DNA of 53,116 bases from Parcubacteria group bacterium GW2011_GWA2_49_9 (GTDB lineage: Bacteria > Patescibacteriota > Minisyncoccia > Phycocordibacterales > UBA10002), in the NCBI GenBank assembly GCA_001004005.1, contig LCQF01000023.1:1-53116 (forward strand), written 5' to 3'. The notes under the pieces were generated by a model that made no database searches, was not told the DNA's origin, and was given only the letters and a program-made list of their open reading frames with translations. Shown piece after piece: positions 9,779 to 33,892 of the stretch. Made by a program: the position numbers and the translations under genes. Each line of letters begins with the position of its first letter. Position 1 is the stretch's first letter.

Positions 9779-10291
9779 ATGGATTCAGAACACATTAAAC
9801 AACTTATTGAAGGACTCTTGAAGCATATGCAGGTCTCGGTGCAGAGCATAGACGTATCCGAGTCGGATGGCCGACAGCGCTTTTCCGTTGTTACTCCCGA
9901 CTCGCACATTCTTATCGGAACTAAAGGGGCGCACCTTTCCGCTCTTAACCATCTCATTAAGAAGATGGTTGCGACCAAAGAAAACGCAAAGAAAGACCCT
10001 TCCGCTTCCCCGCTCTCGTCCGGAGAGGGAGAACGGGAGAAGACGTTTTTCGTTGATGTAAACGGCTATCAAGAAGCCGCGCTTGAGAGTGTCAAAAATG
10101 TAGCCAAAATTATGGGTGACCGCGCCCGTTCGTTCAAGACAAGCGTTGAGCTTGACCCGATGTCTTCATACGAACGAATGGTCATCCACTCTTTCTTTCA
10201 GGACGCAAAAGACGTCAAGACGGAATCGGTTGGAGAAGGAGAGCGGCGCCGAGTGGTCATAAAATACACAGGAGAAGGTTCTAGTTTTTAG
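9779..10291 (+). CDS. jag: Jag/KhpB-type RNA-binding protein (KH + R3H)
   Basis: C-terminal R3H-like LDPMSSYERMVIHSFF. Located after yidC. Contains a short inserted low-complexity segment. Confidence 0.75.
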   Translation: MDSEHIKQLIEGLLKHMQVSVQSIDVSESDGRQRFSVVTPDSHILIGTKGAHLSALNHLIKKMVATKENAKKDPSASPLSSGEGEREKTFFVDVNGYQEAALESVKNVAKIMGDRARSFKTSVELDPMSSYERMVIHSFFQDAKDVKTESVGEGERRRVVIKYTGEGSSF

Positions 10292-10709
10292 GTTCTAGCT
10301 TCTAGTTTGGAGATAAGGGAATAGAGCATCTTCATTACTTCAGTGAGCAACGACTCCACTGCTCCATATGAAAGCTTTGCGGTTTTTGATATTCGTTTTG
10401 CAATTTCTATTTGCGTCTCCAGTTCCGCGGCTGACCCGAGTGCGATGTGGAGAAAGTGGCAAAAATCCTTTTTGGTGCTGCGACAACGACCTTCCGCGAT
10501 GTTTGATGGTATGGAAACAACGGCTCGGCGCATCTGTGAGGTGAGCGCGTATCGTTCTTCATTCGGGAACCCCTCGGTGAGTTCATAAACGAGCACTGAG
10601 AGGTCTATTCCCTTCTGCCACACAATTAAGTCTTTATACGATTTGGCGACAGGCGCATTCATAATCATTTCCCTCTTACTAAAAGCTAGAACCTAAAACC
10701 TAGAAGCTA
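10278..10709. mobile_element. Inverted-repeat-flanked cassette carrying the four-helix-bundle gene (IVS-like)
   Basis: Arms are 10278-10307 (ggttctagtttttaggttctagcttctagttt) and 10679-10709 (ctaaaagctagaacctaaaacctagaagcta). They share the complementary core ttttaggttctagctt. Confidence 0.45.
10288..10668 (-). CDS. Four-helix-bundle protein (23S rRNA intervening-sequence protein family; Avd-like fold)
   Basis: YKDLIVWQKGIDL...EERYALTSQMRRAVVSIPSNIAEG...FLHIALGSAAELETQ matches the hallmark pattern of this family. Confidence 0.8.
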   Translation of the reverse strand: MIMNAPVAKSYKDLIVWQKGIDLSVLVYELTEGFPNEERYALTSQMRRAVVSIPSNIAEGRCRSTKKDFCHFLHIALGSAAELETQIEIAKRISKTAKLSYGAVESLLTEVMKMLYSLISKLEART

Positions 10710-17949: not shown

Positions 17950-18430
17950 AAAGTACCAATCAACTAATCAGAACTAATCTACTAATACCTACGAATCAGA
18001 CCAGACGATTTTGCATTAAAGTTCTCTATCCGCACTATGCGATGAGAACGAACGTAAGTACTACCAAAATTAACCAGAATACCCAGTTTAATTCCTGTGG
18101 CCTGAAGATACCTCTGGGTTTGGACAAAGTCACCACTTGGAATAAAACGCTTGGCTTTCAGTTCAAGGATAATCTTGTCCTCTATAAGAAAGTCAACAAT
18201 GTTATTTGTATCCCCAATCCTGTACTCTCTCTTGTAAATAATGCCCGCCTCCTTTAACTTTTGTTCGAGTAGGTCGGCATATTGTTTTTCCCTTGCAAAT
18301 TTTCCCACCTCATTATGGACTTTATAGCAAAGGCCGACTACATCAAACGAAAGGTCAGGATACAGTAGTCCCACCTCTTTTTTCTTATTTGCAGGTATTT
18401 GTAGATTAGTATTCATTTGCAGATTAGTTT
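17950..18430. mobile_element. Inverted-repeat-flanked cassette carrying GxxExxY-like gene 1 (ACTAATC theme)
   Basis: Arm aactaatctactaatacctacgaatcag (17970-17998) versus the complement of atttgcaggtatttgtagattagta (18388-18412). About 22 of 25 positions match by eye. Confidence 0.45.
17982..18416 (-). CDS. GxxExxY-like PD-(D/E)XK nuclease-superfamily protein
   Basis: Start at MNTNLQ.... LLYPDLSFDVVGLCYKVHNEVGKFAREKQYADLLEQKL...IVDFLIEDKIILELKAKR...LGILVNFG. Confidence 0.75.
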   Translation of the reverse strand: MNTNLQIPANKKKEVGLLYPDLSFDVVGLCYKVHNEVGKFAREKQYADLLEQKLKEAGIIYKREYRIGDTNNIVDFLIEDKIILELKAKRFIPSGDFVQTQRYLQATGIKLGILVNFGSTYVRSHRIVRIENFNAKSSGLIRRY

Positions 18431-19110: not shown

Positions 19111-19578
19111 CATAATGCGAATGCCGCAAATACTGAATGCAAATACTGCGAATTAAGAAACACGTGAATTCAATACCCGTTTTGGATAGAGATTTTGTTG
19201 TTGAAAGTTTACGATAAGACCAAGTTTGAGATTGAGAACCGAAAGGTATCGTTGCATCTGATAGTAATCCTCTCGAGTGACGTGATGTTTGGCCTTTAAG
19301 TCAACAACTATTATACCTTCAATAACGAAATCAGGCACATTGCGCCACGCTTTTTCCCCTACAAACGATGGGGGAAGGCGTACTTCACGCGTATACGATA
19401 AGTTTGCTTTTTTTAGTCCCTCTTCAAAGGCATCGGCGTAGGATTGTTCCGTTCGAAAACGGCCCAAGTCATTGTGGACTTTAAAACAGAGTCCGTTGAT
19501 TTTGTACGATAGTTCTGGATACACCACGCCGTCGTTATTTGCAGCATTCGCATTCTTCATTTGCAGTATTTGCATTAT
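19111..19578. mobile_element. Inverted-repeat-flanked cassette carrying GxxExxY-like gene 2 (AATGCGAAT theme)
   Basis: cataatgcgaatgccgcaaatactgaatgcaaatactgcgaatta (19111-19155) versus the complement of ttatttgcagcattcgcattcttcatttgcagtatttgcattat (19535-19578). About 35 of 44 positions match by eye. Confidence 0.5.
19153..19560 (-). CDS. GxxExxY-like PD-(D/E)XK nuclease-superfamily protein (paralogue of 17982..18416)
   Basis: VVYPELSYKINGLCFKVHNDLGRFRTEQSYADAFEEGL...VPDFVIEGIIVVDLKAKH...LGLIVNF. Start is uncertain (19560 or 19575). Confidence 0.75.
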   Translation of the reverse strand: MKNANAANNDGVVYPELSYKINGLCFKVHNDLGRFRTEQSYADAFEEGLKKANLSYTREVRLPPSFVGEKAWRNVPDFVIEGIIVVDLKAKHHVTREDYYQMQRYLSVLNLKLGLIVNFQQQNLYPKRVLNSRVS

Positions 19579-19997: not shown

Positions 19998-21857
19998 TTA
20001 CTGCAAGGGTTCGCGGTACGGGTCAGTTGAGTAACGCTTTTCTTCCCTCGGAAGCGACATAGGAGCCTGTAGTTTTTGGTCAAGGAAATCCTCTTCCTCT
20101 TCCCCGTTCATTTGAGGGGAGTCCGCCGGCTGGCGGAGAGGTGGGGTATTTGATTCGCTCTGCGGTCGGGTTTTATCCCCATCCCCATCCCCCTTAGCAA
20201 AGGGGGCTGCCTTGGGGGGTTGTCTGGTAAAGGGGGTGCTCCCGTCTGCGGGAGCGGGGGTTGTAATACCCCTCCTGCCGGAGACGGCAGTGCTCCCCTT
20301 ATTAGGGGAGATAGCCTTCCCTTCGGGGGGTGGAATGTTTGGAATTGCCGGCTCAAGTTTATTAATCGGATATTTCGGAAGAGGCGAAGACGACGACCCG
20401 ATAGTGTTTATGGAAGGCTTCCATCCGGTAGGCCCTATGGGGGAAGCTTTTGACTGATAGCCTTTAGCTGTTAGAGAAGAGCTTGGGAGAGTGGGGGCTG
20501 CGATTCTCGGCACAGGGACGATACCTTTAGGATTTTCAATATCCCGAAGTACGTCCGCTCGGCTTAAGGGTTCTTCTTCTCCCCCTCCCCTATCCCCCTT
20601 ACCAAAGGGGGTGCCTCCGTCCGCGGAGGCGGGGGTTGTTTTTCCCATACCAAAGGGGGTGCCAGACAACCCTCCTGCCGAAGACGGCAGTGCTCCCTTT
20701 AGTAAGGGAGATGCGGCGAGACCGGGGGTTGTCCCCACTTGTTTTTTCAGGATATTCTCCCCCATATTCCACTTCGCTCCGGCGGAGTACGGAGTAGAAG
20801 AAGCTGATAGTGGAATAGTCGTAGACTGCTTATAGCTTTTAGCTTCTAGTTTATTCTGACTAGAACCTAAAACCTGAAACCTAGCACCTGTTTCTGGGCT
20901 AGAACCTTGAACCTGAAAGCTAGAAGCTGGCTTCGGCACCACGCTCGGTTTCGGAATTGAAAATGAAGTTCCCGCTTCCAGCCGTGGACCAACTCCTACC
21001 GGAGGAGGCTGCACCACTTCCGCATGCATGCTGCGGAGCGATTCGCGCACCTTCACGAGAATCTGCGAACTCACATCGCGGGCGATTTCTCTCGCTCGCT
21101 CCTCGGGAACGCGGAGGCGGTCGGCAAGGTTCTTGATGAAGTCGGCAGGGTGCGTGAGTCCGAGGAGGACAAGCCCCGTCTCGCTCGCGAGCGCGGCCAT
21201 CTGGTCCACGTGCAAGAGGTACTTCTTGGCGATGGCTTGAATGGCATTCGCGGTATCTACCGAAGAAACCGATTGACGGAGGCCCATCGGCAGGTCTTCA
21301 AACGCATTCCGGAGTTCTTCCTCCGAGTACTTTGTTCCCGCGGCGATACGAATAAGCGCCCGTATGTGATTAGGTTCTAGCTTCAAGCTGTTAGCTTCTA
21401 GTTTATTCTGACTAGAGCCTTGAACCTGAAACCTAGCACCTGTCTCTTGGCTAGAACCTGAAACCTGAAAGCTAGAAGCTGGTTTTATCGGCTCCGGCAC
21501 TCTACCCTCTTTAATCGGATACCCCGCCTGTTTCAAAATCGGAAGAACCGGGTCAAATAGTTTCGTTTGGAGTTCGTAGGCAATCGTGGGGATTTTCGGC
21601 ACATTGTCTTCCTCAATGTTTTTGTCTTGTTGTATGAACGCGACGAGCGTATCCGGTGAGGCCTCCCCTTTCAGAACACGAAGTACTCCTTCACAGAGCG
21701 CTCCGGTTTCAGCGAAGACAAACCCCTGTTCGGCGGCAATAGTCGTTGGGAGAATATGTATTTCCGCCACCCCTTTATCAAGGAGCGCGCTGAATACTTT
21801 CTCCGGAAGCGATTCCAGAAAGAGTGATAGTCTTTCTCTTGCGTCTTGAGGATTCAT
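19998..21857 (-). CDS. Hypothetical protein: ~300-aa structured N-terminal part plus a long tail built largely from repeat-element insertions
   Basis: The ORF stays open through two ~90-bp CTAGAAS modules and many GC-rich units (peptides PLLKGALPSSAGG, GTPFGKGD, APFAKGDGDGD). Ends ...DPYREPLQ. Confidence 0.6.
   Translation of the reverse strand: MNPQDARERLSLFLESLPEKVFSALLDKGVAEIHILPTTIAAEQGFVFAETGALCEGVLRVLKGEASPDTLVAFIQQDKNIEEDNVPKIPTIAYELQTKLFDPVLPILKQAGYPIKEGRVPEPIKPASSFQVSGSSQETGARFQVQGSSQNKLEANSLKLEPNHIRALIRIAAGTKYSEEELRNAFEDLPMGLRQSVSSVDTANAIQAIAKKYLLHVDQMAALASETGLVLLGLTHPADFIKNLADRLRVPEERAREIARDVSSQILVKVRESLRSMHAEVVQPPPVGVGPRLEAGTSFSIPKPSVVPKPASSFQVQGSSPETGARFQVLGSSQNKLEAKSYKQSTTIPLSASSTPYSAGAKWNMGENILKKQVGTTPGLAASPLLKGALPSSAGGLSGTPFGMGKTTPASADGGTPFGKGDRGGGEEEPLSRADVLRDIENPKGIVPVPRIAAPTLPSSSLTAKGYQSKASPIGPTGWKPSINTIGSSSSPLPKYPINKLEPAIPNIPPPEGKAISPNKGSTAVSGRRGITTPAPADGSTPFTRQPPKAAPFAKGDGDGDKTRPQSESNTPPLRQPADSPQMNGEEEEDFLDQKLQAPMSLPREEKRYSTDPYREPLQ
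20841..20930. repeat. ~90-bp CTAGAAS module with AGCTTCTAG/CTAGAAGCT termini (copy 1, in-frame in ORF)
   Basis: Near-identical to 21393-21482 by eye. Encodes PASSFQVQGSSPETGARFQVLGSSQNKLEA. Confidence 0.75.
21393..21482. repeat. ~90-bp CTAGAAS module (copy 2, in-frame in ORF)
   Basis: Same termini and same internal order as 20841-20930. Encodes PASSFQVSGSSQETGARFQVQGSSQNKLEA. Confidence 0.75.
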
Positions 21858-26400: not shown

Positions 26401-26625
26401 TTGTCTTAATCCCCCTTAGCAAAGGGGGTGGCCGAGTCCGCGAGGCCGGGGGTTGTTCTTATTCTCCTAGTCTACGACTACAAGCTTTAGTAAAGGGGGT
26501 GCCCGAGTCGGCGAGGGCGGGGGTTGTTTTTTATCTCCCTCATTACCACACCCCTCCTGCCGAAGACGGCACAGTCTGCGACTATTCCAGTGCTCCCCTT
26601 ACTAGGGGAGATGGGGAGAAGTAAG
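26401..26625. repeat. GC-rich two-hairpin repeat array with an embedded TAGTCTACGACTA module
   Basis: atcccccttagcaaagggggtggccgagtccgcgaggccgggggttgt; ctagtctacgactac; tagtaaagggggtgcccgagtcggcgagggcgggggttgt; cctcctgccgaagacggca; ctccccttactaggggag. Confidence 0.8.
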
Positions 26626-26655: not shown

Positions 26656-29307
26656 TCATTGTACCGTGAACTCGGCCGTTGTCGTCCCGACCACTTTTTC
26701 TGTGGCTGTCCCCGCGTCGGTAACCGCGTTAATAACAATCTTGAACGGAAGGTTAGTCGTTGGCGTTCCCTTCACCATCAGCTGTATCGGACGGGTATTT
26801 CGCAGTACCAAGTCCTCCGCGAACAGAAGCTCGGCCAGAGGCTCGGCAGGCGTGGCGTTTAGCGTGGCGTTCAGAGCACGCGCGTCGGCGGTGTAGTCTA
26901 TGCCCTTTTCCGCATCAAACTCAATCATCGTCTCGGCTTTGGACGTGCCGTCAATAGCATAGGTAAAGGTGAGACTGCTAAAGTTACTGAAGAAATCGGT
27001 AGGCGTTTTGTCATACGGCGTCTTGGTGCCTTCTATGTCATTGCAAGCGGTAAACTGTTGTGTGCACCTAAAATACCTCGCGAGGAAGGAAACCTTGTCC
27101 TGCGCCTTATTCGGGAGGAAGGAAATGTTATCCCACGTGAAGGTGTCTCCTTCATATCCGATGGTTAAGGCTGTACTTCTTGCCGTCCAGTCACGTGGCT
27201 GGCTCATAGTTTTCTGCGCGGGAGATACGGTGAACGAGAACGGTACAACCTGTGTCGGAGTGTTGCCCGACGTATCTAAACGCGTCGCCTTGCCGATAAC
27301 CTCCACTTCGGCGATGGCAAGAGTCATTGATGCAGGGTCCCCTGTTTGGGAAATTCTAAGGAAACGTCCTTTGACTGTAGGTGCGGGAAGGGGGACTTTG
27401 AAAACGGATTCCAGTACTCGTCCCCTGTATAGGACGAGAGGGGTTCCACTATCGGCGACAAGCGTTACTTCCACGTTTCCGTCTCGGAGCGAATTGCGAT
27501 ACTCCGATTGAGTCGCATCCCCCCTTGCCCAGTCTCCACTAAGGCGGTATATATTTATTTCGCGTATTTCATTGACAATCCACTCTCTCTTTTTCGTCAC
27601 CCTCTCTGTCTCTAAATCAACCTCCCACCACTCGGATGTGCCCGCTTTGGTACAGGAAAAAGTGCCATAATGGATGCTTCCCGATGACGGATTTCCATCC
27701 ACGGCTTGTTGTGGGAACGAATCAACGGACCTTACTGCTGGCATCCCGCACTCTCCTTGCGATTGTGTGGCAAATTTCCCGGTTGAAATATTTCCTTCAC
27801 TACTTTGAGGTTGAGGCGGTGGCGGCGCACCTGCCCCGGGCGTTACCGGTGTCCCATCGCCCAACACCCCGCGCCCGCCCGCGGCGGCATCGTCAATCAG
27901 CTTATTCCACGCGTTTGCGCACCCCGCCTTGACTGCGGCGAAATAGGCATTCCACGTCGTAAAACCGTCTCTCGTCACGGGAACAAGGTCAGCCACGCCG
28001 ACTTTTCTGTACATTGCCGGCACAAACGGGCTGGTATCTCCCTTAACAACACCAGCCGTTTTACCCACACCAAGGTTGTCCGTCCATACCTGCATACTTG
28101 TCCAGTTTGGGGGAGCGGGTATGCTGTCGTCCGGCTCATAAAATCCGCTTTTTTCAGGCTTTTCTACGGTCGCCGGATAATACCGCAGATGGCAGTCAAT
28201 TCCCTCTGGAGTCTTGGCGTCAACGGCGCCGACTCCCTTAGTCGGGTCGGTGAAAAGCGCGTCTGTGGCACTCTGTCCGCTGTCCGTAATGCTCCCTTTG
28301 CTCGCGCCGAGAAGTCCGCCAACACCGGTCATTGCCTTCACCAAAAGCTGGTTAATGAGTGCGCCGACCACCTCGTCAATCTCGCTCGCGAGTTCCAATT
28401 CGTGGAAGGTGGTGGCGAGTGCGCCGGTCGTCTGGCCTTCAATAATGCTTCCGGGAGTTTTAATCGGACCTTCTTTGATGCAGGGGCCTTTTCGTATCAC
28501 CTTGTTATTTGCGCCTTTGATATCCGGCCCCCACTTTTCACAGCTCCGCCACGATTTGAATCCTTTTCCCCAATCCAAAAGCTTGATTTGTTGGCCGGTC
28601 GCCGTCGTAATACTCGCGCTCATAATACTCGTTGCTCCGATGTAGGCCCCGTATGGATTGTTTGATTGTGTACCGGCGATATGCACCCACCTACTCAAGT
28701 TTCCCGAGCCTACGGTACCCGACACGAAGCTATCATACGCGCCCTGCACGTTGGCAATGACGTCCGAAAGACGGCAGGTAACCGTCTCTCGGGTACGGAG
28801 CGACATATTGAGGCCGAGCGCGAATTTGATGTTGAGCTTAAACGGAGCGCACAAAAGCGGGGAAATGTCCTGAATGATTTTGCCGATAGTCTGGTCGGCG
28901 ACATCCGAGAAGAATCCTTCGGGGTTGGTGATAAATGAGGGCGAGCCTTCAAACCCGGTGTTAATCCAGTTGACGATTGATTGCGTGAAGGTATGTAAAA
29001 GGGTCTTCGCGATAATCTTCGTCAGCGACTTCATAAAACAAGCCGACCACTCGTTGCTTGCCGCCGAACCCGCACCCTGCGTATTAATGATATTACCGCC
29101 CGCGCTGTTCGTACCCACTGATATAACTGCGTTGACTGCGTTGGCAGTTGTCCCGATGCCCGTTGTTACGGCTTTCGCCGAGAAACATTGCGCAAGCGAA
29201 ACCAACGCTTCAGCTTTTTCGGGACGCGCGAAAAGAAGCGCAGGTATAACTAGCGTTATAGCCAAAAACCCGAGGAGCATCTTTTTAGTCGCCTCTCTCA
29301 CGTCCAC
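26656..29307 (-). CDS. Large secreted/surface protein with an F5/8 type C (discoidin)-like domain
   Basis: N-terminal TM/signal. Central segment AVDGNPSSG...TSEWWEVDLETE...INIYRLSG...GRFLRISQ...LAIAEVEVIGK matches the discoidin/fucolectin-like pattern. First gene of the T4SS-like block. Confidence 0.65.
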   Translation of the reverse strand: MDVREATKKMLLGFLAITLVIPALLFARPEKAEALVSLAQCFSAKAVTTGIGTTANAVNAVISVGTNSAGGNIINTQGAGSAASNEWSACFMKSLTKIIAKTLLHTFTQSIVNWINTGFEGSPSFITNPEGFFSDVADQTIGKIIQDISPLLCAPFKLNIKFALGLNMSLRTRETVTCRLSDVIANVQGAYDSFVSGTVGSGNLSRWVHIAGTQSNNPYGAYIGATSIMSASITTATGQQIKLLDWGKGFKSWRSCEKWGPDIKGANNKVIRKGPCIKEGPIKTPGSIIEGQTTGALATTFHELELASEIDEVVGALINQLLVKAMTGVGGLLGASKGSITDSGQSATDALFTDPTKGVGAVDAKTPEGIDCHLRYYPATVEKPEKSGFYEPDDSIPAPPNWTSMQVWTDNLGVGKTAGVVKGDTSPFVPAMYRKVGVADLVPVTRDGFTTWNAYFAAVKAGCANAWNKLIDDAAAGGRGVLGDGTPVTPGAGAPPPPQPQSSEGNISTGKFATQSQGECGMPAVRSVDSFPQQAVDGNPSSGSIHYGTFSCTKAGTSEWWEVDLETERVTKKREWIVNEIREINIYRLSGDWARGDATQSEYRNSLRDGNVEVTLVADSGTPLVLYRGRVLESVFKVPLPAPTVKGRFLRISQTGDPASMTLAIAEVEVIGKATRLDTSGNTPTQVVPFSFTVSPAQKTMSQPRDWTARSTALTIGYEGDTFTWDNISFLPNKAQDKVSFLARYFRCTQQFTACNDIEGTKTPYDKTPTDFFSNFSSLTFTYAIDGTSKAETMIEFDAEKGIDYTADARALNATLNATPAEPLAELLFAEDLVLRNTRPIQLMVKGTPTTNLPFKIVINAVTDAGTATEKVVGTTTAEFTVQ

Positions 29308-29368
29308 GTTAGTATAGCAGAGGAATGGGGATAATCGGTGGAAAAACAGTGGATAGTGCTTTCTTTTT

Positions 29369-29770
29369 TATCTCCCTTACTAAAGGGAGTCACGAATTCT
29401 GATTCGGGGAGGGTTGTTATCCCCCTTAGTAAAGTGAAATAGTCGTAGACTAGGGGTGACCAGCCGTAGTTTGCGGCAAACTACGGCTGGTCGGGGGTTG
29501 TTTACACCCCTCCTCCGACGTGACGTCGGAGTGCTCCCTTTGCTAAGGGAGATTCGGCGGAGGCGGGTGTTGTATCTCCCTTACTAAATGGAGTCCCCGA
29601 GTCTGCGAGGGGGAGGGTTGTTATCCCCCTAGTCTACAGTCTACGACTGCAGGCTGACTACTTCGTTACAAAGGGGGTGACCAGCCGTAGTTTGCGGCAA
29701 ACTACGGCTGGTCGGGGGTTGTATCTCCCTTAGAAAAGGGAGTACCGCCGTCTTCGGTGGGGAGGGTTGT
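29369..29770. repeat. Tandem array of ~7 GC-rich two-hairpin units (mostly forward orientation)
   Basis: Constant parts are tatc[ct]cccttaNtaaaggg[ag]g and gg[ga]gggttgt. They alternate with variable palindromic stems (cacgaattctgattcgg; accagccgtagtttgcggcaaactacggctggt, seen twice; ccccgagtctgcgagggg; accgccgtcttcggtgg). Confidence 0.85.
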
Positions 29771-30118
29771 TCTTTTCTTTATCCACAACTCAATCTCTCG
29801 CAACACACTGTCCAAATTATTTCTTACCTCGCCTTCCGTAAACCGAAGAACAGTAACCCCCAGCTTTTCCAATAGTTGTTGTCGCCTTACGTCCTTTTCA
29901 ATTTTTGCATCATGCGTTATGCCATCTATTTCAATAGCAAGGTTGAGCGGGGCGCAATAAAAATCAACGATATAAGATAGAATCGGCTTTTGCCGCGAGA
30001 ACGGATAGCCAATCTTTTTACCCTTTAGTTCTTTCCACAGCAAGACCTCTCCGAGAGTGCCATTTTTTCGGAGGCCTTGAGATAATTTCTTGAGCTCTTG
30101 GTTGTAGTATATTTTCAT
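29702..30118 (-). CDS. DUF559 (Vsr-like) endonuclease-domain protein
   Basis: LWKELKGKKIGYPFSRQKPILSYIVDFYCAPLNLAIEIDGITHD...LGVTVLRFTEGEV. The C-terminal tail TEDGGTPFSKGDTTPDQP is read from repeat units. Confidence 0.8.
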   Translation of the reverse strand: MKIYYNQELKKLSQGLRKNGTLGEVLLWKELKGKKIGYPFSRQKPILSYIVDFYCAPLNLAIEIDGITHDAKIEKDVRRQQLLEKLGVTVLRFTEGEVRNNLDSVLREIELWIKKRTTLPTEDGGTPFSKGDTTPDQP

Positions 30119-30122
30119 AGGG

Positions 30123-30379
30123 TTATCTCCCCTAGTAAGGGGAGCACTGCCGTCTTCGGCAGGAGGGGTGTGGCAAAGGGAGAGGTTAAGACAACCCCCG
30201 CCGTATCAGAATACGGCACCCCCTTTATTAAGGGGGATACAACCCCCGACCAGCCGTAGTTTGCGGCAAACTACGGCTGGGCAACCCCTTTTCTAAGGGA
30301 GATACAACCCCCCCTCGCCGACGAGAGCACCTCATTTGCTGAACAACCCCCCAAGGCAGCCCCCTTTGTTAAGGGGGAT
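30123..30379. repeat. Array of GC-rich two-hairpin units (mostly reverse orientation), mirror of 29369-29770
   Basis: acaacccccgccgtatcagaatacggcaccccctttattaagggggat; acaacccccgaccagccgtagtttgcggcaaactacggctgggcaaccccttttctaagggagat; acaaccccccaaggcagcccccttt gttaagggggat. Confidence 0.85.
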
Positions 30380-30394
30380 AACCGCCATCGCACT

Positions 30395-31237
30395 TTACTG
30401 CGTCAGTATGTACCCCGCTTCCCCTTTCGCAAACAGTATGTTCTTCATCACAAGGTAATCTGAAATATCAGTAAAGGCGCGTACCAACTTTTCCACCGCG
30501 GCGGGATACGCGGTAGCGGTTGAGAGTGTTTGCACCGGGTCAGTCATAGCCTCGTAGCGCTTTATTCTGTCATCAAGATTGGCAAGGTCTATCCCATCCT
30601 CGTTCTCCAACGCGCGCTCAAAGATGATAAGTTCGCTCTCCCCGCCTTCTTTATGGGCGATAACGACGGCGCCTACGGCGTTCCCATACGCCCAGAGCGA
30701 GACATCGGTATCTTCGTCGGCAAAGACGAGCTCACTCTCGGTATATACCTTACTCGGCTTCGCCTCGGGATAACGCTGGATAAAGTCCTCAAGAAGTTTT
30801 TGCTCTTCTTCCGCGGTAAACGGCTGGCCGGACTGTTTGAGTGCCAGATATTTGGCGAACAATTCTCGGGAAAGGCGGTCGGTTTCGGTCCAATCACCCC
30901 CGCCCGGAACGATTTTTTGTTCAATCGTGCCTTTATCCAGCTCGTCTTCCGGCCCCTCCTTGGTAGGATTTCGGCCAAGCTTTATCTCTTCCCCATCTGT
31001 TGTGGTATCGCCATCGGTATCGGGATTGAGGACATCGGTATGCCACAGTTCTTCCTCCCAATCTTTCAAACCATCGTTATCTTGGTCGCGCGAAAGGACG
31101 GCCACCGCTTTTGAAGCCTGTTCGGGGGTCACGCGGCTGAATGTAATTTCCGAACGGCCGCTGTACATAAACCAAACACCGCCCCCGATAAGGGCGAGGA
31201 GGATGATGCCGATACTAATTTTTGTGCGGAAGGTCAT
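30395..31237 (-). CDS. Membrane-anchored protein with a thrombospondin-type-3-like Ca-binding repeat
   Basis: Start MTFRTKISIGIILLALIGGGVWF. DQDNDGLKDWEEELWHTDVLNPDTDGDTTTDGEE. Paralogue of 31391..32425. Confidence 0.65.
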   Translation of the reverse strand: MTFRTKISIGIILLALIGGGVWFMYSGRSEITFSRVTPEQASKAVAVLSRDQDNDGLKDWEEELWHTDVLNPDTDGDTTTDGEEIKLGRNPTKEGPEDELDKGTIEQKIVPGGGDWTETDRLSRELFAKYLALKQSGQPFTAEEEQKLLEDFIQRYPEAKPSKVYTESELVFADEDTDVSLWAYGNAVGAVVIAHKEGGESELIIFERALENEDGIDLANLDDRIKRYEAMTDPVQTLSTATAYPAAVEKLVRAFTDISDYLVMKNILFAKGEAGYILTQ

Positions 31238-31390
31238 AGTTTTTCTGATTCTCCCTTTCTTAAAGGGAGCACTTGAGTCTTCGAAAGGAGGGATTTTTCT
31301 AAATCCTCCGCCTCGCCGACTCGGCACCTCCTTAGTCTACGACTACAGGTTAACAGGAGGAATTAAGACCAGTATACCAAATTCTTCTCC

Positions 31391-32425
31391 TTACCGCGGA
31401 AACGAGAAAATACTTCCCGGTTCGCCTTGGCTGAAGCCCACACCTTCGTTGTATAAGAAGTCGGAAACGGCCACAAACGCCTTGGCAAGGGCAAGAGAAC
31501 TCTCACTGTACTCGGTTATATCGGGACCGGAAAGATAAGCTCCTGCTTTTGTGCCCGAAATAGTCTGAATACTTCTCGCGTAATTTTGATAGGCACGAAC
31601 AAGTGCCGAATGTACCGAAGAAGCCTTTTCTGGCGACACCACCGCCGCAATGTCCAGAGCAATCTGGTCGTACTTTTTCGCGAGTTTTCCGAAGCCTTGA
31701 AGTAGAGCCTCGGTCATTTTCGTATTTCCCGACGCACTGTTCCAAAAAGCAAGCTCGGCGTCCGAGTCGGTCGCGGCCGTTTGTATGGGGGCACCGAGCG
31801 CGTTCCCGAAACTATGCAGAGGATTTTCAGCCTGTGCCTGTTCCCTCCCCTCCGTTTCTAAGGAGGGGACTTGAGGGGTGGTGGTGTCCCCCTTAGAAAA
31901 GGGGGTGCCTCCGTCTGCGGAGGCGGGGGTTGTAGGAGTTGTAGTTTCTTGTGTTAAAAGGGGAACAACCCTCCCCGCCGAAGACGGCGGTACTCCCTTT
32001 AGTAAGGGAGTAACAACCCCCGTCCTCGCCGACTCGGACACCCCCTTTTCTAAGGGGGATTGCAGAACCATTACGGGAGTTTCCAGAGAATCATTCGGTC
32101 CTCCCTTTCTCGGATTTCTATGTGCCACCACTTCCGCTCCATCCGGCGTTCCGTCGCTGTCGGTGTCGGGTTTTTCGGGGTCCGTACCCCAAAGGGCTTC
32201 TTCCCAATCCGGAAGTCCATCGCTGTCTATGTCAAACGTGGAAAACGCTGGTTGTATCCCCCTTAGTAAAGTGGAATAGTCGTAGACTAGGGGTGCCGTA
32301 TTCCGATACGGCGGGGGTTGTTCGGTTCGACTCTTTGACAAAAACCAAATACCGAGTGCGACAAGAAAAAGGATTCCAATGAGAAGCATAACCTCGGTTA
32401 TGAGAGTACCGATAGATTTTTTCAT
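31391..32425 (-). CDS. Membrane-anchored TSP3-like repeat protein (paralogue) carrying ~70 aa of in-frame repeat-unit insertion
   Basis: DIDSDGLPDWEEALWGTDPEKPDTDSDGTPDGAE. Inserted segment PLEKGVSESARTGVVTPLLKGVPPSSAGRVVPLL...ASADGGTPFSKGD. Confidence 0.65.
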   Translation of the reverse strand: MKKSIGTLITEVMLLIGILFLVALGIWFLSKSRTEQPPPYRNTAPLVYDYSTLLRGIQPAFSTFDIDSDGLPDWEEALWGTDPEKPDTDSDGTPDGAEVVAHRNPRKGGPNDSLETPVMVLQSPLEKGVSESARTGVVTPLLKGVPPSSAGRVVPLLTQETTTPTTPASADGGTPFSKGDTTTPQVPSLETEGREQAQAENPLHSFGNALGAPIQTAATDSDAELAFWNSASGNTKMTEALLQGFGKLAKKYDQIALDIAAVVSPEKASSVHSALVRAYQNYARSIQTISGTKAGAYLSGPDITEYSESSLALAKAFVAVSDFLYNEGVGFSQGEPGSIFSFPR

Positions 32426-33004: not shown

Positions 33005-33892
33005 CTACGAATAAGAAAGAAACAAGAAGAGGTGTTTCCAATCCGCGAGAGACAGATTTTCCGGACGCGCTTTCTCCGCGATGTTGCACTCTTTGAGCGT
33101 TGCGGAAGTAACCCCTACATTTGACGCGAGAAGTTTCCTCGGATGAGCGAATCCTTTTTTGAGGAAAGCAAAGAACTCCTGTTCGTTCATTCTCCCTTTC
33201 CTAAAGGGAGTACCGCCTTCCGAGGCGGGGAGGGATTTAAATCCTCCGGCCTCGCCGACTCGGCCACCTCCTTTTGCAAAGGAGGAATAAGAGTCGGTGC
33301 CCGTAAAAAATTCTTTTGAGATATGCTCAATCGCGATAATCGCGGAATCCACGTTCGGTGGCGGAGAAAAGGCTCCCGCCTTTACGGTACCGATATACTT
33401 CGGCGTCCCGTAGGCTTTGACACTTATGGAGAGAATGCTTTCTTTTTTATCGCTGGCGACTATTCTCCGTGCCACTTCTTTTTGTAAGAGCAGGACCATT
33501 GTGTGTGGCGGACACTCTGTCCCTTGGAGAAATTTCCGCAAAAATTGTCCCGTAATGTAATACGGCAAATTCGCCACGATTTTGTAGGGCTTCTTTGAAA
33601 ATTGAAAATTGAAAATTGAAAATTCCAATATGTCGGCATGGATGAGCTCAAACTCTCCTGAAGCGATTTCGGCTGCAAACTTCTGTTCCAACACGGGAAT
33701 AAGCCGGTCGTCTTTTTCAACCGCGATGACTTTTCCCGCTTGCTTGAGCAGTAATTCCGTAAGGACTCCCTCCCCCGGGCCTACCTCAAGCACGGTGTCG
33801 GCAGGCAGAAGCTGTGCCGCCCCCACTATTTTCTGGAGCGCGCCTGCGGAGCGAAGAAAATGTTGACCGAGCGTTTTTTTAGCAAAAACCAT
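33005..33892 (-). CDS. rsmA: 16S rRNA (adenine1518/1519-N6)-dimethyltransferase RsmA/KsgA, with two in-frame repeat insertions
   Basis: KKTLGQHFL, VLEVGPGEGVLT, KIVANLPYYIT. Insertions are gaaaatt x4 (33597-33624) and GC-rich units (33191-33285, SFAKGGGRVGEAGGFKSLPASEGGTPFRKG). Confidence 0.88.
   Translation of the reverse strand: MVFAKKTLGQHFLRSAGALQKIVGAAQLLPADTVLEVGPGEGVLTELLLKQAGKVIAVEKDDRLIPVLEQKFAAEIASGEFELIHADILEFSIFNFQFSKKPYKIVANLPYYITGQFLRKFLQGTECPPHTMVLLLQKEVARRIVASDKKESILSISVKAYGTPKYIGTVKAGAFSPPPNVDSAIIAIEHISKEFFTGTDSYSSFAKGGGRVGEAGGFKSLPASEGGTPFRKGRMNEQEFFAFLKKGFAHPRKLLASNVGVTSATLKECNIAEKARPENLSLADWKHLFLFLSYS

Follow-up and report, generated by a model that had tools for sequence, protein, structure and literature searches.

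Introduction

BoxC/PIT/TMECO repeats, known since the 1990s, are found in hundreds of genomes, where they mark unstable loci; they were surveyed by Holder et al. 2015 (PMC4666352), where the earlier work of Bergler 1992 and Hoyne & Maher 2000 is cited. In E. coli, inverted TMECO pairs join a type A with a type B copy, no mobility functions were found near TMECO, and neither ycjD nor DUF559 is mentioned in that survey (PMC4666352). The endonuclease I-Bth0305I, Vsr and DUF559 have been placed in one fold group (PMC3424549). Here we analyze contig LCQF01000023.1 of Parcubacteria group bacterium GW2011_GWA2_49_9, in which a DUF559 gene lies within an array of GC-rich hairpin units. The window is this whole contig (C23, 53 kb) of a source genome, G000, of 0.91 Mb in 44 contigs. 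DUF559 is among the commonest uncharacterized nuclease domains, and neither a protein partner nor a way of spreading is known to us for BoxC/PIT/TMECO repeats. The explanation that we favor for the interval is an array of BoxC/PIT-type units, nested and partly decayed, around a mobile DUF559 cassette, similar to REPIN/RAYT and built on an unrelated enzyme. While the repeats (PMC4666352) and the fold group (PMC3424549) are already known, a literature search found no paper linking DUF559 to BoxC/PIT/TMECO-type repeats.

Repeat units flank the DUF559 genes of the source genome

Units in G000 were defined as nhmmer matches at E<=0.01, which yielded 207 units in 141 clusters over 910 kb. A search for generic triplex motifs returned 353 in this genome vs 1 in its shuffled counterpart. 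Gene ends were then scored for a unit within 120 nt, with genes called by a crude longest-ORF (open reading frame) method. By this measure a unit accompanies 6.6% of gene ends, and both ends are so marked in 14 of 928 genes (1.5%). All three DUF559 copies of G000, namely the window copy on C23, a copy at C1:4332-4715 and an internally deleted copy on C7, have units at both ends (3/3; roughly P = 3e-6). On C1 the gene splits a palindromic pair exactly (...GGAGGGATTT / C ATG ... AAAG / AAATCCTCC...), and an uninterrupted pair, GGAGGGATTTAAATCCTCC, stands 1 kb upstream of it.

The original prediction had itself raised the concern that repeat arrays might be dense enough to flank any small gene by coincidence. 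Such an explanation would be favored by the facts that half of the units fall within called ORFs and that units are present in many intergenic gaps. The census refutes it, with 1.5% of genes flanked at both ends vs 3/3 DUF559 copies, and relatives as well as other phyla keep the same pattern; we regard coincidence as barely conceivable.

A wider association, extending to other small genes, had also been suggested. In the genome census, DUF559 is associated with the triplex unit family, and the GxxExxY and four-helix-bundle genes of G000 are not flanked by it. In the window, a four-helix-bundle gene of the 23S intervening sequence (IVS) type and two GxxExxY genes have inverted repeats of their own, 370-400 nt apart and each of a different family, which bears out the claim that DUF559 is the fourth small gene here with such a topology. 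These small-gene cassettes occupy 10276-10708, 17955-18428 and 19114-19576 of the window, and their repeats are CTAG-rich over 31 nt (90% complementary), AT-rich over 46 nt and AT-rich over 24-28 nt.

The units are of the BoxC/PIT/TMECO type

From their sequences, the units are BoxC/PIT/TMECO-type intrastrand-triplex motifs, with a hairpin filling loop 2 in the predicted fold. Oriented copies from across the genome share one plan: ATC; a 7-bp hairpin whose C/T arm and purine arm enclose a 4-nt loop; 1-3 nt; a second, sequence-variable hairpin; and a G-rich tail that ends in TGT. Both hairpins are backed by covariation (89% of cells paired; 0/500 shuffles as high), which counts lineages rather than events, since G000 has few unit subtypes. 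In hairpin 2, five of the six pairs change on both sides, and most exceptions are tandem G·A mismatches. The tail mirrors the purine arm, and the two covary. Among 99 units, the base triples at positions (4,19,41) are C-G*G in 49, T-A*A in 47 and other in 3, while those at (8,15,45) are T-A*T in 65, C-G*G in 25 and other in 9. The mirror rule for purine-motif triplets holds at 7/7 positions in 93 of the 99 units, vs a mean of 34 and a maximum of 44 for shuffled tails. Further variants in other genomes obey the same rule, including CCCCTCC/GGAGGGG/GGGGTGG and CCTCCTTT/AAAGGAGG/GGAGGATTT.

The strict TMECO consensus, CCCTCNCCC-N3-6-GGGNGAGGG-N3-GGGNGAGGG, has 0 matches in G000, and short forms without the second hairpin exist, such as the unit at 30343-30379. 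A MAFFT alignment of units of mixed length gave no usable consensus structure and was replaced by a length-homogeneous alignment with an explicit structure.

The units are arranged in a regular manner. Adjacent units follow each other in +- orientation 43 times vs 3 times in -+, and arrays read ++--. Tight tail-to-tail pairs are heterotypic in 13/13 cases, joining a C-type unit with a T- or T2-type unit. Some pairs of C-type and T2-type units are additionally enclosed by a longer inverted repeat, GTAACCCCTCACACTC..., to form an element of ~150 nt resembling a miniature inverted-repeat transposable element (MITE), with 19 hits; examples in G000 are C6:34156-34301, C25:30170-30480 and C16:6170-6320. 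The 12-mer TAGTCGTAGACT (mini-hairpin TAGTC-GTA-GACTA), of which the 0.91 Mb hold 69 exact copies, for example at 29435-29452, 29631-29650 and 26560-26575 of the window, is often inserted within triplex units and looks like a second, nested mini-repeat.

By the same crude gene caller, 106 of the 207 units lie inside ORFs, the clear cases being the DUF559 tail and a 344-aa gene. Within the latter (31391-32425) units are in frame at 31887-32060 and 32256-32320; another ORF, 19998..21857, has them in frame at 20187-20312 and 20592-20712, and in-frame units of a long ORF are also found at 33202-33283.

DUF559 genes and repeats pair across bacterial phyla

A wider comparison took in 80 DUF559 loci of Bacteroidota, Ignavibacteria, Cyanobacteria, Proteobacteria, Firmicutes, Nitrospinota, Poribacteria, Spirochaetes and the candidate phyla radiation (CPR). 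The same unit type stands at both gene ends in loci of these phyla. The inverted-repeat score across DUF559 has a median of 16 vs 8.5 at displaced positions, and a GC-hairpin profile places GC-rich hairpins at ~10-fold enrichment <=150 nt from the gene. Generic triplex motifs reach 5.5 per kb <=200 nt from 57 DUF559 genes vs 0.34 per kb further out, and at least one such motif is present at 49 of these 57 loci. The canonical arrangement, with a forward unit upstream and a reverse unit downstream, was found at 25 loci. In other phyla the whole cassette also occurs in frame inside the genes for LeuRS, HsdR, HsdS, a type ISP enzyme and an N6-methylase, and the DUF559 gene of E. coli, ycjD, adjoins a canonical TMECO copy. 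The pairing of DUF559 with these repeats is pan-bacterial.

Architecture of the array in the window

The array is a block of 1010 nt (29370-30379) between a 310-aa gene (30395..31327, minus strand) and an 883-aa gene (26656..29307, minus strand). Sequence reading and a repeat finder place in it the 138-aa DUF559 ORF (29702..30118, minus strand) and twelve repeat units. The predicted counts of about seven units on the left and about five on the right are correct, as is the mostly reverse orientation on the right (four reverse, one forward); the left array, taken to be all forward, consists of six forward units, one of them a fragment, and one reverse unit. The individual elements are as follows.

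29370..29417, plus strand: U1, T-type; CTCCCTT/AAGGGAG forms hairpin 1, followed by hairpin 2 and the mirror tail GGAGGGTTGT
29419..29501, plus strand: U2, C-type with long stem; 18-nt mini-insert TGAAATAGTCGTAGACTA breaks hairpin 1; hairpin 2 is the 35-nt palindrome GACCAGCCGTAGTTTGCGGCAAACTACGGCTGGTC
29504..29553, minus strand: U3, sole reverse unit of the left array, tail-to-tail with U2
29554..29573, plus strand: unit fragment, 3' portion of hairpin 2 and tail GGGTGTTGT, read by eye
29574..29621, plus strand: U5, T-type
29623..29722, plus strand: U6, C-type with long stem; the hairpin 1 loop carries an insert of ~40 nt; the 35-nt palindrome forms hairpin 2
29723..29770, plus strand: U7, T-type; abuts the DUF559 domain and encodes the tail residues TTLPTEDGGTPFSKGD
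30125..30171, plus strand: V1, T2-type, 6 nt from the DUF559 ATG
30191..30238, minus strand: V2, C-type, tail-to-tail with V1
30239..30303, minus strand: V3, long stem; hairpin 2 is the long palindrome; mirror partner of U6
30304..30342, minus strand: V4, degenerate, hairpin 1 decayed
30343..30379, minus strand: V5, short form without hairpin 2; loop 2 is CTGCCTT; nearest to the canonical TMECO layout
31248..31363, minus strand: in the next intergenic gap, a heterotypic unit pair of the ATTT/AAAT subtype without a gene, with the -10 box TGGTATACT on one side and the 310-aa gene's ATG on the other; at this site G009, G013 and G014 carry the DUF559 cassette

The long palindrome CCAGCCGTAGTTTGCGGCAAACTACGGCTGG (31-35 nt) occurs three times (29458/29461, 29679/29681 and 30250), twice on the left of the gene and once on the right, in line with the earlier observation of a long stem on both sides. 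The repeat finder returned a composite inverted repeat of the innermost units, with arms of 101 nt (29670-29770 vs 30191-30291; 82% complementary, 420 nt between the arms), and the DUF559 gene does lie in its loop, as had been claimed. The C-terminal tail of the protein is encoded by units, again as predicted; its length was underestimated at 18 residues, as the ORF overlaps the units by 69 nt, so that the last 22 residues plus the stop are repeat-encoded. The final 21 nt of U6 code for the end of the ORF and its stop. At the other end, GGGGAG of V1 stands 8-13 nt upstream of the DUF559 start and is Shine-Dalgarno-like.

The same array is present, identical, in two further assemblies of the population; the other assemblies carrying this sequence originate from groundwater metagenomes. 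These assemblies bear on the idea of an invertible switch, in which the inverted units would be recombination sites that flip the DUF559 segment. The annotation 'DUF559 domain-containing protein' is 14-fold enriched among predicted programmed-inversion targets (PMC9881135), and the direct-oriented innermost units of the G000 copy could be a trace of inversion. However, any gene with inverted repeats on its flanks would be expected to show such enrichment, no invertase is adjacent, and the three assemblies have one orientation only. We therefore consider a switch very improbable.

Two observations concern the neighboring genes. In another assembly of the population, the 310-aa gene has 114 extra in-frame nt (38 aa, LSEFMAIPTPKGV...) at window position 30544/30545 (L117 2405-2518). 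This is the sole difference among the assemblies, so that the window has either an in-frame deletion or an assembly variant in this gene, without relation to the units. Two to three TTATCCAC(A)-like motifs, which resemble DnaA boxes, precede TGCTATA(C/A)T in the region upstream of the 883-aa gene (29307-29360); they are kept across genus members, as judged from the orthologous promoters of L016, L020, L022 and L024. Because the -10 box overlaps the listed GTG start, the true start of the 883-aa gene is probably the ATG nine codons downstream.

The DUF559 protein is kept functional

The product of the 138-aa ORF matches Pfam DUF559 (PF04480) over residues 8-111 with E=6e-29 and 100.5 bits against a gathering cut-off of 20.6, the domain corresponding to 29786-30097 on the DNA. 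It also matches the YcjD-type family of NCBIfam (E=1e-19) and the sequence of PDB entry 3HRL (E=1e-13). The Pfam and PDB sequence matches fix the protein as Vsr-fold PD-(D/E)XK, for which a nuclease role is predicted. All family-invariant residues are present (E24, W28, F40, R42, Q43, V51, D52, F53, C55, E63, D65, G66, H69, D76 and R79). Of these, E24, W28, R42, Q43, D52, E63, D65, H69, D76 and R79 do not vary among 29 sequences that represent many phyla, and D52, E63, D65 and H69 make up the conserved D...ExD...H set. The ratio of nonsynonymous to synonymous substitution (dN/dS) among five genus orthologues is 0.05-0.14, with dS saturated. The gene is under strong purifying selection and its active-site residues are invariant, which indicates that the protein is kept functional. 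The units that flank it in orthologous cassettes are canonical, yet differ in subtype and in hairpin 2, and are either constrained or continually renewed.

Strong purifying selection on an accessory gene would also suit a caretaker, that is, a structure-specific nuclease that clears the triplex or cruciform DNA of units that stall replication, and that is co-selected and lowers the cost of the units while moving nothing. In addition, motifs of the TMECO type form stable triplexes and mark unstable E. coli loci (PMC4666352), and the unit-richest genomes all have the gene. Such a role leaves unexplained why the gene sits exactly at pair centers, or in frame in other genes together with its own ends, and unit-bearing genomes without the gene exist. 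We judge it quite unlikely.

Cassette occupancy across the genus

Genus members keep the three genes in the order 344-aa, 310-aa, 883-aa. The 310/883 gap is filled by DUF559 and units in G000 and G010. In G009, G013 and G014 it is instead the 344/310 gap, one gap upstream of the G000 site, that is filled by DUF559 and units. Where the sites are readable in the remaining genus members, both gaps are unfilled; they measure ~200 nt and 20-170 nt and hold no units. The search for empty sites by comparative genomics that had been proposed was thus successful: across 18 genus members, the conserved sites A and B show presence/absence polymorphism, being filled in some and empty in others. Divergence of the empty sites prevented placement of the site A insertion point at base level.

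The minimal form, unit-DUF559-unit in ~450 nt, is seen in G014, between a -10 box and the next ATG; at the equivalent site (31248-31363) G000 has the gene-less pair. The basic module of ~450 nt consists of a unit (head ATC..., G-rich tail last), the ATG, DUF559 and an inverted unit. The upstream unit provides a Shine-Dalgarno-like GGAG(G), and the downstream unit the C-terminal tail and stop. The module entered the 310/883 gap in the G000/G010 lineage, and the gene together with its ends has been inherited and relocated as one. The proposed tie between the GC-rich unit family and the cassette is borne out by this minimal form, which in relatives occupies the other gap or is absent. The gene is found at pair centers, alongside many gene-less pairs of its own subtype.

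The same gaps also hold other elements. A four-helix-bundle gene lies in the 310/883 gap of G020 (L020 2460-3192) and in the 344/310 gap of G010 (L014 2244-2761), bounded by inverted repeats AAACACAAAACACAG.../...TGTGTTTTGTGT, and CTAG-rich palindromes occur in these gaps in G008, G005 and G001. Several cassette families use the 344/310 and 310/883 gaps as insertion hot spots. In relatives, the contigs G013:C6, G014:C3, G008:C17, G005:C16, G001:C37, G006:C42 and G007:C43 break off no more than a few hundred bases from the locus, with units at the contig ends. Repeat arrays probably break assemblies, so cassettes may be under-counted.

Probable concordance of gene clades with unit subtypes

The genus has two DUF559 clades, each linked to its own subtype of unit tail. 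The C23-like clade goes with ...TTGT / ACAA... tails and the C1-like clade with ...ATTT / AAAT... tails, and the linkage holds within a single genome, as in G000 and G014. Unit counts in the genomes with one clade are as follows.

C23-like clade only, three genomes, TTGT-type/ATTT-type units: 59/7, 19/3, 9/2
C1-like clade only, three genomes, TTGT-type/ATTT-type units: 9/19, 3/14, 1/3

These single-clade genomes are concordant in 6/6 cases; they are related, and gene-less genomes also keep units. The link between unit count and DUF559 presence in the genus is weak, with medians of ~22 and ~12 in genomes that are again related. Unit counts in other genomes rest on patterns tuned to G000; the unit profile model, tuned to the G000 subtypes, under-counts in distant genomes and was replaced by a model-free triplex-motif finder.

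A proposed homing-like mode of spread

The position of the gene suggests how pairs and gene might spread. The Vsr-fold nuclease would recognize a unit pair at its tail-to-tail junction, folded or palindromic, and nick or cut there. Repair would then copy a gene-bearing or gene-less pair from another locus, with the unit arms serving as homology. Such spread would be homing-like, and gene-less pairs would be acted on in trans, much as REPINs are by RAYT. Copying into the pair junction, as proposed, would explain why the gene and new pairs lie at pair centers and why palindromes grow concentrically. We put forward this combination of action at the junction, copying by repair, homing-like spread and concentric arrays tentatively, as an inference somewhat short of probable.

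Several points weigh against it. Action of DUF559 on such units is a prediction from sequence, and G000 has three RAYT-like Y1 genes as possible other drivers. Neither a target-site duplication nor a defined cut site is visible at the cassette junctions. With 58% aa identity, the DUF559 copies of G000 are old, and the gene itself has therefore not moved recently. The subtype concordance comes from related genomes and may comprise only 2-3 independent contrasts. Strict dependence on the gene is contradicted by G008 and G015, which have 21 and 35 units without a detectable DUF559, and by G003, which has a DUF559 remnant only; G004 has 24 TTGT-type units and only a distant, stop-containing DUF559 copy. 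Among 20 genomes of the order outside the genus, 18 have neither units nor gene, one has both and one has the gene without units visible to the model. Finally, a reversed unit lies beside the ATG of the G000 copy, and units face outward at loci L009-L011.

Some of these observations would be expected if DUF559 were a passenger, with units spread by other means (a RAYT-like Y1 enzyme in trans, or replication or repair errors at folded DNA) and the gene trapped among them, moved along with them by recombination and horizontal transfer, in an unrelated role, for example Vsr-type mismatch repair or restriction-like defense. The units of G008 and G015, the contrast of old gene copies with many, similar units, and the three Y1_Tnp genes in the genome all fit this view, as do a weak PADLOC match to a methyl-directed restriction enzyme and the collection of other cassettes (four-helix-bundle gene, CTAG palindromes) in the same gaps. 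It is at odds with the bracketing of DUF559 by the same repeat class in many phyla at 16-fold local enrichment, with a gene-unit distance of 0-16 nt at both ends, and with the fidelity of each gene clade to its own subtype within one genome. Moreover, the Y1 genes do not adjoin units, and the GxxExxY and four-helix-bundle genes of G000 are not flanked by this family. A passenger role is a serious possibility, if an unlikely one. The Y1 genes (RAYT/IS200-like, HUH motif HFHLL) lie at C8:32100-32858, C35:11927-12535 and C6:41838-42539 of the 0.9-Mb genome; the REPtron, with its RAYT link, was rejected as a candidate for the locus on account of their separation from the units.

The homing-like reading can be extended. 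DUF559 might be the missing partner of BoxC/PIT/TMECO repeats across bacteria, with each clade reading its own heterotypic junction and copying pairs into new sites, including in-frame positions in essential genes, as a second, independent invention in the style of RAYT/REPIN. An extruded heterotypic pair would put T:G and A:C mismatches at fixed positions, the kind of substrate nicked by Vsr-fold enzymes. We regard this extension as distinctly doubtful at present.

If true, the link between DUF559 and the repeats would give a function to a very large orphan gene family and a mechanism to an orphan repeat class. It would also explain some in-frame inserts in essential genes and, because contigs of relatives break at the repeat arrays, part of the fragmentation of assemblies from small-genome uncultured bacteria. 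The idea is directly testable with E. coli YcjD and BoxC.

Comparison with known systems

Compared with insertion sequences and MITEs, the cassette shares inverted ends; no duplication is seen at its junctions, and it has no transposase. A closer resemblance in layout is found in ORF-bearing 23S rRNA intervening sequences and in the small-gene cassettes of the window, all of which have a gene of ~110-130 aa and inverted repeats ~400 nt apart, wedged between genes; the small-gene cassettes even use the same intergenic hot spots in relatives. In contrast, both the gene families and the repeat families differ. Rickettsia palindromic elements (RPE) are likewise tolerated in frame in coding genes, as are the units here in the DUF559 tail, the 344-aa gene and ORF 19998..21857. 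Unlike RPE, which are unrelated in sequence as far as seen, the units are of the triplex type and are tied to a nuclease gene.

Vsr-like (EDxHD) homing endonucleases such as I-Bth0305I belong to the same fold group as DUF559, and both are encoded by selfish-looking small genes with presence/absence polymorphism. However, the cassette lacks intron or intein domains and an extra DNA-binding domain, and is bounded by repeats with in-frame read-through (LeuRS, HsdR and others).

Like BoxC/PIT/TMECO, the units comprise a C-rich arm, a loop, a G-rich arm, a second loop and a G-rich mirror copy as potential third strand. Both occur as many dispersed copies with frequent inverted pairs, always of two types, and in both copy number differs markedly between close relatives. 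The units differ in stem length (7 nt here, 9 there) and in loop 2, mostly a 16-35 nt hairpin here and 3 nt there. Whereas BoxC/PIT/TMECO is always intergenic, about half of the copies here lie inside ORFs, and the host is a CPR-type bacterium.

With REPIN-RAYT, the system shares a small nuclease gene between inverted folded repeats and gene-less inverted pairs scattered through the genome; a correspondence of different enzyme clades with different repeat subtypes is probably shared too. Unlike REPIN-RAYT, the bracketed enzyme is a PD-(D/E)XK Vsr-fold DUF559 protein rather than an HUH Y1 transposase, and the units are of the triplex type, many of them in frame inside genes.

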